Positions 5,072 to 16,899 of a DNA stretch of 16,899 nt are shown here, piece by piece. This stretch comes from Mycoplasma todarodis. Its GTDB lineage: Bacteria; Bacillota_I; Bacilli_A; Mycoplasmatales; Metamycoplasmataceae. Made by a program: the position numbers and the translations under genes. The stretch spans positions 102,099-118,997 of the forward strand of contig NZ_CBDBYJ010000003.1 of assembly GCF_965212735.1 (NCBI RefSeq), read 5' to 3'. How positions within the stretch are numbered: the stretch's first letter is position 1; the number at the start of each line of letters is the position of its first letter. The notes below the pieces were generated by a model. That model was given only the letters and a program-made list of their open reading frames with translations, had not been told where the DNA came from and did no database searches.

Positions 5072-6628
5072 TTATTCTGATTTTCTAAAGAAACAAATCA
5101 TAGCTAATAGCATTGATAGTCCAGCCATTATAGTTAGTATAACTAAGATGGTAAAACCTCTATTATCAGTCTTATCTGCAATCGGCGTGATACTTTTCTT
5201 CCCATTTATTTGTTTTGCGTTTATTTCTTTTTCTTCTGTTGTATTGAATAATGTACCCTTAATTGTCTTGGGTGTTTCGTATGGAGTTTTAACCTCAATA
5301 CTTACATTAATCTTCCCATTAGAAGGGTTTACAGAAGCTGTAATATTACCTAAAGTTGAATATTTCATTTTAGGTATTGTAATATCTGAATATTTACCTA
5401 ATGAATTAGAATCCACTATTTCTTTAGCTATTTCAGCAGCGGTTTTATTGCCTTGATTTTTAATTTCAACAGCTTTAAAAAGATTCTCGATAAAGTCTTC
5501 ATTTATTTTTGCAATCTTTGAATAATCAATTTTAGCAAGTCCTGCTTTCTCAGGGTCTTTAGATGTTAATCCTACATATATAGTATCCTTCATCTTTTGC
5601 ATAAATGTATATGAGTTTTGGTCATCAATAGTAGTGATTCTTCCATTAACTAATGTTCTTAAACCGCTTCCTGATCCTATGTAAATAATTCCATCTATTT
5701 TATTGATGAATGCACCTGCAACAGAGGTTTTATCGATTGTTCCGTCTTCAAATTTAGCAACTGGGCTTAACATCTTACCATCTAATTTCATAAGTCCTTG
5801 ATCGTAAGTTCCTACATAAACAACGCCATCGATTTCTTTCATGAAACCACCTGCAACATCAGTGCTATCATCACCTCCGGATGTTGTTTCTAATGCTGGA
5901 GTAAGTTTATCGCCCTCCAGTTTCATAAGTCCTTTATCATTTGTACCAACGTATATAGTTCCGTTTATCTCTTTTATGAAACCATTAAGAACACTTGTAG
6001 TGTCATCTTTACCAGATTTCTTTGCTGCCTGAACAAGTTCGCCATTTTCTAGTTTCATCAACCCTTTATCAGCAGTTCCTACATAAATAGTTTTGTTTAT
6101 CTCTTTGATAAACCCATGATGAACTTGCGTTTCGTCCACACTTGTATTTGTATTCTTGTTTGTCTTGTGCATAATTGGAAAAATGTTCCCATTTTCCCAT
6201 TTCTTTAACCCTTTATGAGCTGTACCTATATAGATTGTTTTACCTATTTTTTCTATAAAGCCATCTTCAAGATCAACTTGTGATTCAGGAAGCACAGGAA
6301 CTAATTTATTGTTTTCTAATTTCATAAGTCCTTTATTAGCTGTACCTACATAGAAAGTTCCATCTATTTCCTTGATGAATTTCTCCATGTTCTTATGTTT
6401 ATCAATCATTGTTACCGGAGGTTCAACAACCGGTGCACTTGGGGTTTGCATATATGAGTCTGTATAAATGGTCATACTGTTTTTTAAGTTATTATTCGCA
6501 AAAAGGTTTTCTTGCTTGTTGTTTTGACTTCCATTTAGGTTCGTTGGGCTTATTGCAGCTATAGTTATAGGCGCAACAACTGCAGCAACGACTCCTAATG
6601 ACATTGCGATTCTTTTATTTATTTTCAT
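5072..6628 (-). CDS. surface protein, 518 aa: N-terminal signal peptide, 7 propeller-like repeats, C-terminal TM anchor
   Basis: Uninterrupted ORF with RBS GGGAGAAAAAA before ATG 6628. The N-terminus MKINKRIAMSLGVVAAVVAPITIAAIS has no lipobox Cys. Seven repeats of F[IM]KEIxGT[IF]YVGTxxKGLMKLE resemble the Reg_prop / beta-propeller blade pattern. The C-terminus TILVILTIMAGLSMLLAMICFFRKSE is a TM helix plus a basic tail. Confidence 0.85.
   Translation of the reverse strand: MKINKRIAMSLGVVAAVVAPITIAAISPTNLNGSQNNKQENLFANNNLKNSMTIYTDSYMQTPSAPVVEPPVTMIDKHKNMEKFIKEIDGTFYVGTANKGLMKLENNKLVPVLPESQVDLEDGFIEKIGKTIYIGTAHKGLKKWENGNIFPIMHKTNKNTNTSVDETQVHHGFIKEINKTIYVGTADKGLMKLENGELVQAAKKSGKDDTTSVLNGFIKEINGTIYVGTNDKGLMKLEGDKLTPALETTSGGDDSTDVAGGFMKEIDGVVYVGTYDQGLMKLDGKMLSPVAKFEDGTIDKTSVAGAFINKIDGIIYIGSGSGLRTLVNGRITTIDDQNSYTFMQKMKDTIYVGLTSKDPEKAGLAKIDYSKIAKINEDFIENLFKAVEIKNQGNKTAAEIAKEIVDSNSLGKYSDITIPKMKYSTLGNITASVNPSNGKINVSIEVKTPYETPKTIKGTLFNTTEEKEINAKQINGKKSITPIADKTDNRGFTILVILTIMAGLSMLLAMICFFRKSE
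5525..6379 (-). repeat. seven imperfect tandem coding repeats (about 35-49 codons each) inside the propeller gene
   Basis: Blade starts fall at residues 84, 124, 173, 217, 262, 307 and 342 of the 518-aa product, with a conserved core IYVGT..KGLMKLE. Confidence 0.7.
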
Positions 6629-6909
6629 TTTTTTCTCCCTAGATCATTTAAAAAAATCAAAATATAGATTTGCCGTACCAATAGACAATAAATTTGATGA
6701 TTTAAATGGTTTTTATTTCAACATACATTAAAATTTAACCAATATCTAGAATATATAAATAATTCTTATTTCTTATTACAATACAATTATATTGTTTTTT
6801 GACTTATATCACCATTTTTTAGTTGCAAATTCAATAATTTAAACATATAAAATTACATACTCCCCTTTATATATGTGTATTTTTACCCATTTTTGTAAAA
6901 AAAATAAAG

Positions 6910-6956: not shown

Positions 6957-7169
6957 TTAAGCGTTAGCTTGTTTAGTAACAACAACGTTTTTAGCTCTTT
7001 CTTTTCCATCTACAGTTTCAACTTCGAATTCAACTGTGTCATTTTGGTATAGGTTTCTGAAACCTGACCCTGAGATTGCTGAGAAATGTACGAATACGTC
7101 TTCTCTACCTTCAACACCGATAAATCCAAAACCTTTAGTTTCATTAAAGAATTTTACTTTTCCTGTCAT
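6957..7169 (-). CDS. csp: cold-shock domain protein (CspA family), 70 aa
   Basis: [32 protein letters not shown]... carries the RNP1 (KGFGFI) and RNP2 (VFVHF) motifs. RBS GAAGGAGATATATATT precedes the ATG. Confidence 0.95.
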
Positions 7170-11729: not shown

Positions 11730-11797
11730 CTCATTATCTAATTCATTTCTTTGATAATATTCACAACCTTATTTCAATAGTAAAAAAATAAAAAAAG

Positions 11798-11824
11798 AAA
11801 TAACATCTCACCGATGTTATTTTT
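11798..11824. terminator. bidirectional intrinsic terminator (cutC / 100-aa ORF)
   Basis: AAATAACATC-TCACC-GATGTTATTT, flanked by an A-run (11783-11796 region) and TTTT. It overlaps the stop of the minus-strand ORF at 11817-11819. Confidence 0.7.
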
Positions 11825-12119
11825 GTACTTTTTTAACTACTTCAATTCATCCATCATAACGATCTTTTTGAATCTTCATGTTTCCATAAATATCTCCACC
11901 TAAAACAAATTGTTTTGTGATTGAATATCTAATTCCGTTTACTTCACCTTTAGTCACATCACCAATCGCATCGATTGATTTTTTAGATAATAGCATTCTG
12001 TTCTCAGGAACATGTGCTCCACCTTTTTCTTTTGGTCAAATATATGTGCCTGTTGGTTCACCTTCATTGCCGAAGCAATCAATGTTTTCAAACCTATCTC
12101 AACTTCATGTTTTCTTCAT
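11817..12119 (-). CDS. hypothetical protein, 100 aa, translationally coupled to the exonuclease gene
   Basis: Invisible in the track because it contains 4 in-frame TGA codons. RBS AAGGAGTAATT precedes ATG 12119 and lies inside the end of the upstream gene (its stop is at 12122-12124). Product: MKKTWSWDRFENIDCFGNEGEPTGTYIWPKEKGGAHVPENRMLLSKKSIDAIGDVTKGEVNGIRYSITKQFVLGGDIYGNMKIQKDRYDGWIEVVKKVQK. No family recognised. Confidence 0.65.
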
Positions 12120-12121
12120 AA

Positions 12122-12640
12122 TTACTCCTTAGTCTTCTTCATAAGTTCAAGTGTGTGTTTCGCATCACTCAATCCACGGTGATCTTCTTTTGTAGCTAAA
12201 TCTAGATCAATGATTAATGATTCTAATTTATAAGTTTTTCTATTAGGTCATTTTTGTTTGAATAACTTGATTGTGTCAAATCATTCTGTTTCAATATAAT
12301 CAATTGAATGCTTCATAAGATTTGTTCTAATGAAACCTTTATCAAATGGTGCATAGTGTGCATAGACATTTAGGTCACCAGCAAATTCTTTAAGTAATTT
12401 AAGCGCCATACTTAATGGAATACCACTTTCTTCAAGCATAGAATTAGTAATACCTGTTAAGTTTGTGATGAATGGTGGAACGTTACGTTCAATTTCAATT
12501 AAATATTCAAATGTATCAATGATTTCCATTGTTTGTCCATTTACTTTAATAGCAGCAATTTCTATAATGTCTTCTGTTTTTGGTGATAGTCCTGTTGTTT
12601 CAATATCTAGAACTAAAAAATCTTTTCCGTTGTTAATCAT
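12122..12640 (-). CDS. DEDDh 3'-5' exonuclease (DnaQ/epsilon-like), 172 aa
   Basis: Track ORF 12281..12688 continues through TGA 12281-12283 and 12248-12250 to TAA 12122-12124. Motifs: Exo I LVLDIETTG, Exo II YAHYAPFDKGFI, Exo III HRGLSDAKHT. The preferred start is ATG 12640 (MINNGKDF) behind AAAGGGGTCAAAT, rather than the track's upstream alternative start. Confidence 0.85.
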
Positions 12641-12701
12641 ATTTGACCCCTTTATTGTTAAGTTAATTATAAACAAAAAGCACCCCATAACCCCTAGATA
12701 T

Positions 12702-12726
12702 AAAAAAACACAGCTTTTGCCGTGTT
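12702..12726 (-). terminator. minus-strand intrinsic terminator just upstream of the exonuclease promoter
   Basis: The minus strand reads AACACGGC-AAAA-GCTGTGTTTTTTTTAT. One stem position is a G.U pair only in the minus-strand RNA. Confidence 0.55.
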
Positions 12727-12859
12727 AATACGTTTCACTTTCTCTCTAAATCATCTTAAGAAAATACAAAATAAACTAATAAGGAGTTATAAACGACCAT
12801 CAACGATTTTGAAGGCTTGATTTAAAAAATGTTATTTTCCTAAAATGAAAAAGTGCAAC

Positions 12860-12897
12860 GTGCCAATGCATTCAATCAAAATTGGCACATTTTTATT
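12860..12897. other. 8-bp hairpin GTGCCAAT-N13-ATTGGCAC, followed on the plus strand by ATTTTTATT
   Basis: Perfect inverted repeat 12860-12867 / 12881-12888. It could be a plus-strand terminator, or the 5' stem-loop of a minus-strand transcript starting at the adjacent -10 box. Confidence 0.4.
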
Positions 12898-12902
12898 ATA
12901 CA
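12895..12902 (-). promoter_or_regulatory. -10-like element (GTGTATAAT) heading the non-coding interval 12702..12890
   Basis: The minus strand reads TTGTATATACAAAAAAGTGTATAATAAAAATG, directly after the terminator of the 363-aa gene. Confidence 0.4.
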
Positions 12903-12946
12903 CTTTTTTGTATATACAAGTTATATTATATAAAGTAATTTGCATA

Positions 12947-12970
12947 GAAAAAAGCACTCTTAAAGTGCTT
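12947..12970 (-). terminator. intrinsic terminator of the 363-aa gene
   Basis: The minus strand reads AAGCACT-TTAAG-AGTGCTTTTTT. The stem overlaps the TAA at 12969-12971. Confidence 0.7.
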
Positions 12971-14060
12971 ATAAATCTCCAAGTAATTCATTCATGAAAT
13001 CTTCATCAAGTTCTTGAGTAACAATTTCTTTTTGTTCAGGTATTTTAGTTTCTCTATCATCTTCTTTAATAATAGGATCATTATATGTAACTTCTTCTAC
13101 CTCGATAATGTCTTCAACACTTTGTTGAACCAATGTATTTGAATTAAGCAATTCTTCCATGAAATCTTCATCAAGTGATTGATTATGTAGCTTTGTTTCT
13201 TCATTAAATAATGTTATTTTCTTTGGTTTAGCAACTCTTTTTGGTTGAATTCCTGCTTTTTCTTCAAGACCAACAGAATTCAATAGTTCATTAGCATACT
13301 TATCATCGTAGTTTCGATTGTGTAACTTTGTTTCTTTGTTTACTACCACTCTCTTTTTAGGTTGTGGTTTTGTTTTAACTGGTTCTGCACGTTTTGTTAC
13401 AAAGTCATCAGTCTTATCTAGTCCTCACGCTTTTAATAATTCTTGAGAATATTTTTCATCTAATTTTTCAGAATAAACTTCTTTATCTGGTTGTTTAGTA
13501 CGTTTAACTTTTTTATAAGTTTTTTCTGTTTTCTTCTGTTCTGGCATTCTATCTTTGATAAGTCCAAATTCTTTTTCAAAATCATTAAAGAATTCTTCAG
13601 AAGATTTACCCTTGAATAATGAATCCTTTAATATTTGTTCAACTTGTTCTAGTTTTGATTCTTCTTTATATTCTTTTTTCATGAATTCTACAAATCTTGA
13701 AGTTGAATTTATGAATGCAGTTAATAATAAATAGTTTTTGTCATCACTTGTATTTGTAAAAGCTAAAGTCATATCAACTTCTCCAAATGCAATATTAGCA
13801 ATAAAGATTTTTTCATTTTTATAAGTTACAAATGTTTTTGTTGTTCCATAAATAACTGATCTTATAAATTGAGCGTATTCAACTTTTTCTTTATTAAGTT
13901 CTAATCTTTCATTAAGTCTTGAATGAGCGTGATCTGTTAAAAATACACTTTTATCTCCGAATTTTTCTTTTGATTCAATTCTTAATGAACTCGATGGCAT
14001 TACTTGTTCTGTAAATTTATTTACGATGTGGCTTGTTAGTTTTAATTGGTTAAGAGTCAT
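12969..14060 (-). CDS. hypothetical protein, 363 aa: N-terminal HAxxRLxER domain plus a C-terminal repeat region with four acidic LDEDFMxELL-type motifs
   Basis: Track ORFs 13425..14060 and 12969..13349 share a frame and join through TGA 13425-13427 (...ELLKAWGLDKTDDFVTKRAEPVKTKPQPKKRVVVNKETK...). ATG 14060 has no SD but lies 7 nt after a TATAAT. Confidence 0.75.
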
Positions 14061-14067
14061 ATGTACT

Positions 14068-14073
14068 ATTATA
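14068..14073 (-). promoter_or_regulatory. -10 box (ATGTATAAT), 7 nt before ATG 14060; probably a leaderless mRNA
   Basis: The minus strand reads AAAAATGTATAATAGTACATATG. Confidence 0.45.
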
Positions 14074-14106
14074 CATTTTTACTAGCGCCCACTTGAAATG
14101 AGTAAT

Positions 14107-14130
14107 AAAAAACGAATCACGTATGACTCG
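14107..14130 (-). terminator. orphan minus-strand intrinsic terminator at the low-coordinate end of the gene desert
   Basis: The minus strand reads CGAGTCA-TACG-TGATTCGTTTTTT. One stem position is a G.U pair only in the minus-strand RNA. Confidence 0.55.
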
Positions 14131-14950
14131 CATTATTATTTAATATTAGTACAAGAAGAGTGCCACGTCCTCTGAATACTATTTATACGTTAAAGAAATG
14201 AATTGCACTTCTGCCAGAAAGTGCGTGTATTTGTTAATTTTATCTTTGTGAGGTTAAAATTCCTCACGTTTGCTTATATTGAGATAATATACTCAGCTTT
14301 TGATTCAACTTTATTTTTGTGGAAGACAAAAAGTTGAATTTCTTCAAATGGTGAGAAATGAAAAATCATCATAAGAACGATCATAATGCATTTTATGGAT
14401 GTTTTCAGTAACAAAGTATCATGCCATATATTTGCATTATCTTTTTATAAACCAGTGCCTTCCGATTGAATTATACCCTTAAAATTATTTTTATTTTTCG
14501 AGGCCATTTTTTTCAAAAAGCCCACAGAATTAACCTATTACGGGTTTTAACGCTTTCAAAAAAGCACATTTTTTTAAGGCCACCCTATATAAAATAACAT
14601 TTTTGTATAACTGTTCACTTATATAAGAATTTATGCAGAGAAAAAACTTATTTTTACTGAATTTAAACATAATGCCTCATTTGTCCTAAAATTCGCCATT
14701 TCATTTTTTAAAGGTATTAGTGCTTTTTCCTACTCTTTTTATAAAAAACAAGGCCCAATTTTGAAAACAACCTGTGTACTCAGGTGCTATTTTTTTATAA
14801 CTTAGGAAAAAAATAGGAAAAAACATACTTATTAGGTCAAAAAATGCATTTTTATTTTTGGGGGTACCTCCCACCCCATAATTTCATGGTTTTTCTTGTA
14901 AAAAGCACCATATAATTTAGTTGTCCTAGATTTACATGTAGGATGTTCGG

Positions 14951-15010
14951 ATGATTATTAAAAGATATGTGTTAGCTCTACTTAGGAATTGAGCTGATGG
15001 AAGTTCATAA
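14951..15010 (+). CDS. possible 19-aa ORF (MIIKRYVLALLRNWADGSS)
   Basis: AGGA lies 7 nt upstream of ATG 14951 and a TATAAT lies at 14911-14916. The ORF overlaps the next one. It may be chance or pseudogene debris. Confidence 0.2.
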
Positions 15011-15146
15011 AATATCTTTTAAAAATAAATATGGAAAAAACTCTTTTCGATCCATATTTGAAGTTGTCAAGTTTAATGATAAATGCAAGTCTATTGTTGA
15101 GCGTGGGGAACGTACCCCTCGATTATTTAAAGAAACGTTTAAATAA
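14997..15146 (+). CDS. possible 49-aa basic protein
   Basis: AGGAA lies 8 nt upstream of ATG 14997. Product: MEVHKISFKNKYGKNSFRSIFEVVKFNDKCKSIVERGERTPRLFKETFK. Its composition is more protein-like than other frames of the desert. No family recognised. Confidence 0.3.
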   Translation: MEVHKISFKNKYGKNSFRSIFEVVKFNDKCKSIVERGERTPRLFKETFK

Positions 15147-15451
15147 TTCGCCTAATAATTAATACAACTAATTAGTATTAATTAAATAAAACGATTATGA
15201 GCAACGCACTGAGAATATTATTAACACAGTAATTTATTAATCTAAATGTTTACACCTAACTAAGAACATACACCTGGATTATCAATATATTAAAATGCAC
15301 GATTTATTTTGCTAATTAGTTTCGCCATTGATTAGCATTCGCCAACTTAAAAAATGCAGTTGTTTTAGAATCAAATTACTTGTGACGAGTAACGCTAAAT
15401 ACTTTTATTTTAAAAAAACTTTTATATAACACGGTGAATTAATCACCACTT

Positions 15452-15487
15452 AAAAAGAACATAATGATTATTGTTCTTTTTTTTATA
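15452..15487. terminator. strong intrinsic terminator inside the gene desert (plus-strand T8; weaker in the minus direction)
   Basis: AAGAACA (15455-15461) pairs with TGTTCTT (15472-15478), with an inner ATAAT/ATTAT extension, followed by TTTTTTTT. Confidence 0.6.
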
Positions 15488-15625
15488 ACCTTTTTTAGCA
15501 TAGAACCTTATTTATTAATGCTTATTATTCTTTTTAAGGGGTAAAGTTATATTCAATGGGAAAATATATGTTTTGTTTGCACTCCCCTGTTAAAAGGCTT
15601 ATTTTAAACAAAGATAGGCCATATT

Positions 15626-15651
15626 AAAAAGAACTCAAGTGAGTTCCTTTT
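15626..15651. terminator. intrinsic terminator after the permease gene (bidirectional geometry)
   Basis: GAACTC-AAGT-GAGTTC, flanked by AAAAA and CTTTTATTTTT, 8 nt beyond the TAA at 15659-15661. Confidence 0.6.
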
Positions 15652-15658
15652 ATTTTTC

Positions 15659-16899
15659 TTATTTAAAGTCTCTTCCTAAGTATTTATAAACTACTAGACC
15701 AGCAAGAGATATAGCAATGATTGATCATACAACGTATACAATCACAGGTTTAACTCATGGTGTTTCTGTGTAGTAAGTTAATCTTAAGTCTGATTCATAT
15801 AGACCCATTTTAACTAGAGCTTCTGGTTTTTGTCATAAAGCACTATTAAATGCTGAAGAATCGTCTTTGAATTTTTTAACAAGTAAATAGTTGAAAGCAG
15901 GGATTTTTTCTAAGTTAGTATTATCATCTGTGTTTTCTGTTCATGAGAATCCTATTTTACTCATATTAATTACTAATCCACTAATTGCTTTGTCATATGT
16001 ATCTCAAGTATTGCTTCCTGTTCATATTGCTGGGTTACTGTAAATCTTATTAGCATCCTGAATATTGTTAGCAATTGTTTTACCACTTGAGTTTTTACTT
16101 CTGAACCCTTCTGGTTTAAAGTAAAGTAAACTATAGTCTTTACCATTTATGTTAACTTGCATCGCATTATTTGTAAAGTTATCATCTGAGTTTGATTTTC
16201 AATCAGTTACATTAATTAATGAAACATTTTTTGTTTGGAATGCTGAATAGAATTTGATAAGTTGTTGATAAACATCTATGTAAGCAACATATTTATATCA
16301 ACCTTTATCTTGTTCTTCGATTGCAGCTTTAAGAGTTACACCATCTTGGTCATAAACTCTTCCACTATTGTATGTTGTTGTTCCATCCGCTTTAATAGCT
16401 ATTACATTTTCTTGTCTTGCACCTGAAGAAATTTGTCCATTACCTAAAGGTGAAAGAATAAATGATGTAATAGAGAATACAAATGGAATAAGTATTGCTG
16501 TAACTAATGTCGCAATCTTACCGAATGAAGATGCTACAAATGTTATAACTGAAGACATGATCATTGTGATGATTAAGTTCCCTATAAATAAAGAACCTGC
16601 AAATTTTATCTTTTGAGTACCATTTGCGTTTGTATCTGCTAATGATATTATGATTCCAAGTAGAAAGATGAATACTGAAAAGAATAATATGTGTGCATAT
16701 AGAGCAAGGAATTTACCAACGATGATTTTAATTCTTTTTATTGGTTTGGCAACGATTATTAATTCTGTACCATCTTCTTCTCCATCTTTAAAAATTGTGA
16801 TTGCTTTTGTGGCTACATACAATGGACCAAATACAAATGGGAATAAGTAGTAGTAAGCTAATAGTCCATCAATAACTGCAGCATCTGATTCATTATTTG
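15659..16899 (-). CDS. ABC-2-type transporter permease with a large extracytoplasmic loop; N-terminus runs off the right edge
   Basis: Track ORF 16298..16822 (GTELIIVAKPIKRIKIIVGKFLA, several TM helices) is open upstream to position 16899. Downstream it continues through many TGA codons (first at 16298-16300) to TAA 15659-15661, ending in the TM helix VWSIIAISLAGLVVYKYLGRDFK. Confidence 0.8.

Follow-up and report, generated by a model that had tools for sequence, protein, structure and literature searches.

A single-copy Mycoplasma todarodis protein with a predicted RelE-like head and a conserved, disordered tail of acidic helical motifs

The window analyzed here is a stretch of 16,899 nucleotides from Mycoplasma todarodis (RefSeq assembly GCF_965212735.1, contig NZ_CBDBYJ010000003.1, positions 102,099 to 118,997), and the gene at issue is a complete coding sequence at 12969–14060 (window coordinates; this gene and all of its features lie on the minus strand), which specifies a head-and-tail protein of 363 amino acids (aa) followed by a stop codon, 100% identical to the annotated M. 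todarodis protein P0001. The G+C content of the window is ~29%, and because TGA occurs in frame in 11 of its 11 long open reading frames (ORFs), with TGG seen once, the window uses genetic code 4. The single in-frame TGA of this ORF, read as Trp, specifies aa 212 (13425–13427); the most constrained part of the gene lies 3′ of it, and the ratio of nonsynonymous to synonymous substitution (dN/dS) is 0.09–0.33 in every segment. The start codon is unambiguous in view of the in-frame TAG-TAA stops 19–24 nt upstream and of a conserved N-terminus, MTLN. An extended −10 promoter box, TGTATAAT (14068–14075), ends 7 nt before the ATG, a probable leaderless start, and no Shine-Dalgarno sequence precedes this ATG. 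A −10 box is similarly placed in each of the four close genomes, namely the window, L001, L002 (from M. marinum) and L003, the last of which has GTTATAAT 6 nt upstream. A first-pass annotation of this DNA had proposed a leaderless mRNA, and this remains plausible with a box 6–7 nt before the ATG in the four genomes and in-frame stops just upstream, the transcription start being predicted from sequence. The gene is monocistronic in the window, with its own −10 box and its own intrinsic-terminator-like hairpin and T-run (12948–12970), which overlaps the stop codon. A second terminator hairpin, also on the minus strand (14107–14131), suggests that another minus-strand transcript is terminated just upstream of the promoter. 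No conserved palindrome that might serve as an operator was found at the promoter.

The family to which this protein belongs is very small. A search of 5.8 billion proteins returned six proteins in total, the query included, the others coming from a Mycoplasmatales metagenome-assembled genome (MAG; 73% identity), M. todarodis strain 5H (69%), an unnamed NCBI entry (66%) and M. marinum (45%), together with a shorter protein of 257 aa, without the C-terminal part, that is 85% identical over 71% of the query. An exhaustive profile search (HMMER) with the head alignment against 1.84 billion cluster representatives (E≤1e-3) gave eight matches. Two of these represent clusters of the close family and five are remote relatives of 200–290 aa (18–28% identity) that share the same head followed by an acidic, aromatic-rich tail, one of them from a Mycoplasma sp. 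MAG; the eighth, a 1016-aa repeat protein (P0012, E=9e-4), was judged a spurious match. A second large-database profile search added no members, and scans of JGI metagenomes and IMG/VR found no relatives. With one copy per genome, the gene is chromosomal, single-copy and specific to one lineage, a small clade of invertebrate-associated Mycoplasma from marine hosts or waters. Scans of the window protein and all 10 members with Pfam, NCBIfam, PADLOC and PHROGs returned nothing consistent, even at E≤10: no Pfam family matched the window protein at E≤10, and PADLOC gave only isolated single-member matches, none of them for the window protein, with no defence model common to the family. Neither the protein nor the head profile found anything relevant in sequence searches of the PDB.

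As the first-pass annotation had it, the head is N-terminal and the tail C-terminal, but the structured head reaches to about aa 166, so that the tail spans ~197 aa (167–363) rather than ~170. The head begins with a segment of low model confidence that is predicted to form an amphipathic helix (aa 1–27; 13980–14060), continues with a RelE-like core (aa 28–119; 13704–13979) and ends with a predicted three-helix extension (aa 120–166; 13563–13703; predicted local distance difference test, pLDDT, ~50), which includes a conserved F-x-G-K-S-S-E-E-F-F and is kept in the remote relatives. In an alignment of 10 full-length members (A3), which reaches down to 18–28% identity, K7, L8, H44, R52, Y110 and T114 are invariant, and I12, K15, P22, E51, G93 and L144 are nearly so. 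Three of these residues fall on one signature helix, H44-A-H-S-R48-L-N-E51-R52 (13905–13931), which across the family reads H-[AF]-x-x-[RK]-x-x-[ED]-R, while Y110 and T114 bound the last core strand of the model, Y110-L-L-L-T114 (13719–13733). The strings FLTDHAHSRLNERLELNKEKVEYAQFI and YLLLTAF, which had first drawn attention to the head, are indeed present, and the HAxxRxxxR-type signature is conserved in all 10 aligned members. Within aa 120–363, no domain model matched in any member, whether of helix-turn-helix, MqsA, Phd/YefM, ParD or similar antitoxin type. The head is near-neutral (isoelectric point, pI, 6.0), as are DUF4258 domains (pI mostly ~7), whereas classical RelE toxins are basic.

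A first AlphaFold2 (AF2) model, of the full-length protein on a six-sequence alignment, had a pLDDT of 37 and was unusable. A second, built on a nine-sequence head alignment that includes the remote relatives (A4), reached a pLDDT of ~78–89 for aa 28–125 and shows a beta-alpha-alpha-beta4 topology in the core. Compared with the PDB by Foldseek, this model led to a list headed by RelE-superfamily toxins: HigB2 (5JA8 and 8A0X), Mycobacterium tuberculosis RelE2 (3G5O) and Thermus thermophilus RelE (2KHE), with M. tuberculosis RelE1 (9G12), HP0892 (2OTR), the HigB proteins of Escherichia coli and Shigella and the RelE-like nuclease Cami1 also among the leading matches. The six accessions just given, with 6kml and 5ycl, are independent RelE-family entries at the head of the list. 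Foldseek probabilities were 0.84–0.99 (0.97–0.99 for the leaders), template-modelling scores were at most 0.61 when normalized to the toxin, and E-values were only 1e-2 to 1e-1; in the viral library BFVD, one annotated DUF4258 protein and phage minor-capsid C-terminal domains were among the matches, at E≥1e-3. Thus RelE-family toxins are the best structural neighbors of the head, with weak statistics. It is rather unlikely, but conceivable, that the model is misleading and that the head is in fact a small alpha/beta domain of a new kind, with no relation to BECR toxins: no Foldseek E-value fell below 1e-3, the alignment held nine sequences, three of the five models had a pLDDT of 45–51, NTF2-like and other alpha+beta folds appear lower in the PDB list (where a contact-dependent inhibition, or CDI, toxin is found as well), and hhalign gave no significant link to DUF4258. 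Against such an artefact stand the independent RelE-family entries that head the list, with probabilities of up to 0.99, and an alignment to DUF4258 that is collinear and has the His in register.

This last comparison drew on Table S2 of Gerdes 2025 (PMC11980606), from which nine genuine DUF4258 domains were taken. The hhalign P of A4 against them was 0.06, over the beta-sheet; a control comparison of DUF4258 with gp49, both accepted BECR families, was equally non-significant, and the comparison therefore has little power. The greedy alignment, itself non-significant, runs collinearly over 77 columns and places H44, G72, G93 and the strand-final aromatic residue in register with the His, Gly, Gly and Tyr of DUF4258. 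Thus, of the DUF4258/BrnT-like toxin fold that the first-pass annotation had proposed, the prediction of a RelE/BECR fold and the register of the His are supported, but membership by sequence is not, as neither PF14076 (DUF4258) nor the BrnT model (PF04365) was among the matches of any of the 10 members. A DUF4258-like motif order is consistent with the data, with family membership by sequence not demonstrated. The likeness extends to the predicted beta-alpha-alpha-beta4 core, the near-neutral charge, the [ST]-x-H-[AV] that opens helix 1 after a hydrophobic strand, a Gly in an inter-strand turn and an aromatic residue that ends the last strand. The two differ in the Arg spacing after the His, which departs from the DUF4258-MqsA subfamily examined, and in the additional N-terminal helix, three C-terminal helices and 200-aa tail of the present protein, which has neither an upstream antitoxin gene nor an MqsA-type fusion. 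With the RelE/HigB mRNA interferases (HigB2 5JA8, RelE2 3G5O, T. thermophilus RelE 2KHE) the head model shares the order of strands and helices, yet identity is 9–12%, the root-mean-square deviation is ~4.5 Å, E is ~1e-2, and the head is not basic and has no antitoxin. The models place the head in the BECR/RelE fold class with moderate confidence and suggest a very divergent member of RelE/ParE type that is nearest to DUF4258 in motif order. The protein as a whole probably works most like, and descends from, DUF4258/RelE-type BECR toxins.

The tail (aa 167–363; 12972–13562) is a disordered polyampholyte in which basic, K/P-rich linkers (net charge +4 to +6) alternate with acidic helical motif units. 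It falls on the disordered side of the charge-hydropathy boundary with a charged-residue fraction of 0.41, and in the six-sequence AF2 model pLDDT is below 50 across aa 129–352, with a short helix at each motif. Four copies of the motif described in the first-pass annotation are present: LDEKYSQELL (copy 1, aa 200–209; 13434–13463), YDDKYANELL (copy 2, aa 251–260; 13281–13310), LDEDFMEELL (copy 3, aa 296–305; 13146–13175) and LDEDFMNELL (copy 4, aa 351–360; 12981–13010). Also as described, ETKLHN precedes copies 2 and 3 (at aa 243 and 288) and an identical 18-nt stretch, CATGAAATCTTCATCAAG, occurs at 12993 and 13158; copy 4 ends three residues (GDL) from the C-terminus, not six. The pattern [LY]D[ED].[FY]..ELL matches the protein four times, and two or more matches were found in none of 200,000 shuffles. 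Fifteen copies from the four close genomes give the consensus Q-x-[LY]-D-[DE]-x-[FY]-[MA]-x-[EQ]-L-L; the todarodis clade has four copies and M. marinum three, as unit 2 (aa 241–266) is missing there. Copies 3 and 4, together with the islands LVQQSVEDIIE and DRETKIPEQK, make up an acidic C-terminal module (aa 286–363; 12972–13205) with a net charge of −20.

Selection on the tail is strong and uneven. Identity is 0.42–0.52 in the linkers, 0.62–0.68 in motif units 1 and 2 and 0.81–0.83 in the C-terminal module, compared with 0.79 in the head. By the Nei-Gojobori method, dN/dS is 0.13–0.23 for the head (aa 1–166), 0.20–0.33 for the middle of the tail (aa 167–285) and 0.09–0.15 for the C-terminal module, making these 78 residues the most constrained part of the gene. 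The repeats are thus conserved in the homologues and held by strong purifying selection; a lack of such conservation, which the first-pass annotation had named, along with an unrelated fold of the head, as telling against its proposal, was not what was found. That annotation had also read the 18-nt identity as a sign of recent duplication. Copies 3 and 4 are instead separately orthologous out to M. marinum, at 45% protein identity, and since both have orthologues in all four genomes the duplication is old. Recent duplication was rejected on the further grounds that in the three other genomes the two copies are unlike each other in both peptide and codons, the 18-nt identity being peculiar to the window strain, and that identical codons for an identical hexapeptide would arise by chance in ~5% of cases. 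A helix of the head, aa 153–165 (SSEEFFNDFEKEF), was considered as an ancestral motif copy and discarded, as a position weight matrix of the 15 copies is silent there. The tails of the remote relatives are acidic and carry 3–5 aromatic residues within their last 30 positions; the strict motif array is, by these comparisons, an innovation of the todarodis/marinum clade.

The gene lies among housekeeping genes (TopA, DprA, Csp, ClpB, CutC, MnmE, TatD, SPFH/NfeD), and a defence or mobile-island context was rejected on the basis of these flanks. It is not part of a bicistronic toxin-antitoxin operon of type II, it lacks the conserved operator of such modules, and no small antitoxin-like ORF lies beside it in any of six genomic contexts (the window and L001–L005). 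Might the head be neutralized in cis, as the toxin half of a single-chain toxin-antitoxin protein whose three helices and/or acidic helices serve as antitoxin? We regard this as unlikely, and the same holds for the release that it would call for, by proteolysis of the disordered tail (e.g. by Lon) or by a displacing trigger, for instance a phage protein. The idea draws on the lack of a separate antitoxin gene in all six contexts and on the disordered, acidic nature of the tail. The toxin-binding halves of many antitoxins are likewise disordered and acidic. In addition, fused single-gene modules are a documented class of 195 cases (PMC11980606), among which the DUF4258-MqsA fusions have the toxin as their N-terminal part, and our protein resembles these and the HigB-HigA fusions in joining an N-terminal BECR domain to a C-terminal region in one polypeptide. 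It differs from them in that the C-terminal part is a disordered repeat array with no recognizable antitoxin or DNA-binding domain and in its stable, single-copy position amid housekeeping genes rather than in a variable island. The lack of an operator palindrome and of a consistent PADLOC match also speaks against a single-chain module, charge neutralization is not obviously needed by a head that is not basic, and three to four motif copies per head, variable in number, suit avidity better than 1:1 masking.

Two neighborhoods recur around the gene. In the four close genomes it is followed by a gene for a DEDDh (PolC-exonuclease-like) exonuclease and then by an orphan 100-aa ORF, with a gap of only 41 nt in M. 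marinum; this order is lost in the remote relatives, and L004 and L005 have lost the exonuclease. On the other side, an ABC ATPase and an ABC-2 permease adjoin the gene in the todarodis clade and in a remote lineage, the MAG NC236, and not in M. marinum or L004. Both linkages, and the observation that ParE-type members of the BECR fold are non-nucleases (PMC11980606), fit a non-catalytic adaptor or regulator in which the RelE-like fold was co-opted for binding and the tail scaffolds or regulates the transporter or the exonuclease. This explanation seems quite improbable: neither linkage is universal, the gene has its own promoter and terminator in the window, and the invariant His, Arg, Tyr and Thr seem more suggestive of an active or ligand-binding site than of a scaffold.

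Secreted polymorphic toxins commonly carry BECR domains as their warheads. That the protein is an RNase toxin exported by the adjacent transporter without a signal peptide, with the acidic C-terminal module as export signal, for use on competitors or host cells, is nonetheless highly improbable. The linkage to the ATPase and permease in two distant lineages, the conservation of the extreme C-terminus and the CDI toxin among the fold matches can be cited in its favor, but the toxin domain is N-terminal here and C-terminal in polymorphic toxins, no immunity gene is present, and the transporter linkage is missing in M. marinum. Nor are ABC-2-type permeases known as protein exporters.

We tentatively favor, as a real possibility, that the protein is a BECR-fold module that stands alone, is fixed in the chromosome and depends on a multivalent docking tail for its targeting or regulation. 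The invariant His44, Arg52, Tyr110 and Thr114, with the nearly invariant Glu51, probably form an RNA-binding or RNA-cleaving site, with RNA as the presumed target. The basic K/P-rich linkers could hold nucleic acid non-specifically, and each of the three to four acidic amphipathic helices would be a short docking element that folds on binding to a partner's groove, hydrophobic or basic, with avidity arising from the presence of several copies. The RelE-like head could in this way be tethered to, or restrained at, a cellular partner acting in trans instead of being controlled by a separate antitoxin. Docking in trans is favored because the tail tip is extremely conserved relative to the head, because the variable copy number suggests avidity and because no basic head surface needs neutralizing.

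Several observations weigh against this proposal. No docking partner was identified, and the motif is clade-specific, which argues against a universally conserved one. The position weight matrix of the 15 copies found no significant match in the remote relatives, its one marginal match (in P0008) falling on a different helix, and a degenerate DNA pattern for LDEDFMxELL gave only four matches, all by chance and within folded proteins of unrelated kinds, with viral contigs yielding none; as the strict motif is thus absent from the remote relatives and from the other proteins sampled, a conserved universal partner is not demonstrated. A database search with the tail alone gave no candidates, the query itself also going unrecovered, so that this search was uninformative. 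The head has no sequence-profile link to any BECR family (Pfam, none at E≤10; hhalign P ~0.06), and the activity of DUF4258 itself is listed as unknown (PMC11980606).

Acidic docking tails are familiar from proteins of genome maintenance, such as the C-terminal tip of SSB, D-D-D-[IL]-P-F, and the tails of phage T7 gp2.5 and gp4. The present tail may be likened to those of SSB type in being disordered and acidic with a hydrophobic or aromatic end, and the gene neighbors a PolC-exonuclease-like DEDDh domain. It differs in ending ...ELLGDL, without a Pro-Phe tip of the form [DE]3-[IL]-P-F-COOH, in the lack of an OB fold in the protein and in having a 10–12-residue helix repeated internally instead of a single C-terminal hexapeptide. 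Remote relatives end in ...DDVPYFEDDFE, ...SKLFDF and ...EDFPWDN, and only P0009 has a DDVPYF-like string. Possible resemblances of the motif to clamp-binding (QLxLF), PIP-box and SSB-tip peptides were set aside, as the spacing does not fit.

Discussion of BECR/RelE-fold proteins nearly always treats them as two-gene toxin-antitoxin modules or as secreted-toxin warheads. Multidomain BECR proteins without an identifiable antitoxin have been acknowledged and left unanalyzed (Gerdes 2025, PMC11980606), and the protein described here belongs to this class: it matches the sequence model of no defined family, is accompanied by no antitoxin partner and lacks the antitoxin domain of the fused modules. 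Its architecture is unusual and well conserved, the evidence for its fold is moderate, and it is known here from sequence and models. A solitary, syntenic and strongly constrained copy in reduced Mycoplasma genomes suggests that the fold was domesticated for a cellular job, and the finding that the most conserved part of the protein is its disordered repeat tail points to control by docking over control by an antitoxin. That this is a RelE-fold nuclease with no antitoxin at all, controlled or addressed by the multivalent acidic amphipathic helices of its own disordered tail, is a stronger statement that we consider doubtful. Such a nuclease can be pictured in two versions: one that docks on a core machine (the ribosome, the replisome, or repair enzymes such as the adjacent DEDDh exonuclease) and one that is a single-chain toxin released by proteolysis or a trigger. 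If true, BECR toxins would here be regulated by a new logic, in a gene that near-minimal genomes have fixed among their housekeeping genes. Unless the mechanism is new, general impact is limited by the very small size of the family. The protein is small and self-contained, its tail is separable and H44, R52 and Y110 are clear candidates for active-site residues, and as such it offers a tractable entry to DUF4258-like domains as well as a case of strongly selected short linear motifs in bacterial disordered regions.

Several features of the surrounding DNA were observed in passing. Between the gene and the exonuclease gene lies a conserved spacer element (12689–12968, minus strand; 11081–11358 in L001; 11120–11404 in L003) that has no Rfam match and is absent in M. 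marinum. It contains a perfect palindrome, TTGTATATACAA (12908–12919), that abuts an extended −10 box, TGTATAAT (12895–12902); an 11-bp 5′ hairpin (12860–12888) in which pairing is preserved via compensatory and wobble changes; an invariant 20-mer, ATAACTCCTTATTAGTTTAT (12771–12790), with an anti-Shine-Dalgarno-like CTCCTT; and a terminator (12702–12726) just before the exonuclease start (~12640). In sequence it looks like a leader or small RNA of ~190 nt with an operator. The exonuclease ORF as listed (12122–12688, minus strand) begins too early, the conserved start being MINNGKDF (~12640, 172 aa) after AAAGGGG; its best models, the PolC and DinG exonuclease domains, mark the predicted product as a stand-alone, proofreading-like DEDDh exonuclease. 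Directly downstream of it, the 100-aa orphan ORF (11817–12119, minus strand) shows 94% identity to its counterpart in the MAG and 67% to that of M. marinum, where its stop codon overlaps the end of the exonuclease gene, and it has no Pfam, NCBIfam or PDB match. The row MnmE, TatD-family nuclease, the gene described here and DEDDh exonuclease in M. marinum (L002, 7663–11743) has short gaps, and its three nuclease-like genes may form an operon. Next to the 100-aa ORF, the window (11730–11816) is without a pair of genes for SPFH/band-7 (317 aa) and NfeD (148 aa) proteins that L001 (12248–13647), L002 and L003 carry after this ORF, in L001 and L003 before CutC; the difference is a strain-specific deletion or insertion.

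On the upstream side, the "gene desert" that the first-pass annotation had counted as part of the arrangement does not exist in M. marinum; the immediate upstream neighbors there are MnmE and TatD. In the window it corresponds to 1.6 kb (14061–15658) without an ORF conserved in relatives, ~75% identical to its counterpart in the MAG DT_67, barely alignable to strain 5H and lacking in M. marinum; it could consist of decayed genes or non-coding RNAs. Terminator-like hairpins are enriched in 12600–15800, with 10 found against 0.8 expected. Beyond this region lies the ABC pair (window 15659–16822, minus strand, and past the window edge; L001 6322–8641; L005 5827–7942). Between the todarodis clade and NC236, the ATPases are 46% and the 464-aa permeases 28% identical, alongside ~29% for the head-and-tail proteins themselves; the pair is on the same strand as the gene in the todarodis clade and diverges from it across a short shared intergenic region in NC236. 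Farther away, a predicted lipoprotein or membrane protein (5072–6688, minus strand; 61% identity to the MAG version) looks like a beta-propeller, with some six GTIYVGTxxKGLMKLE-type repeats, and a 70-aa cold-shock protein (6957–7169, minus strand) is 100% identical in DT_67 and 94% in M. marinum. Finally, ClpB of the window is 95% identical to that of type strain 5H and 98% to that of DT_67, and the head-and-tail protein is 69% identical to its 5H orthologue; by these comparisons the source genome is probably a species-level lineage different from strain 5H.

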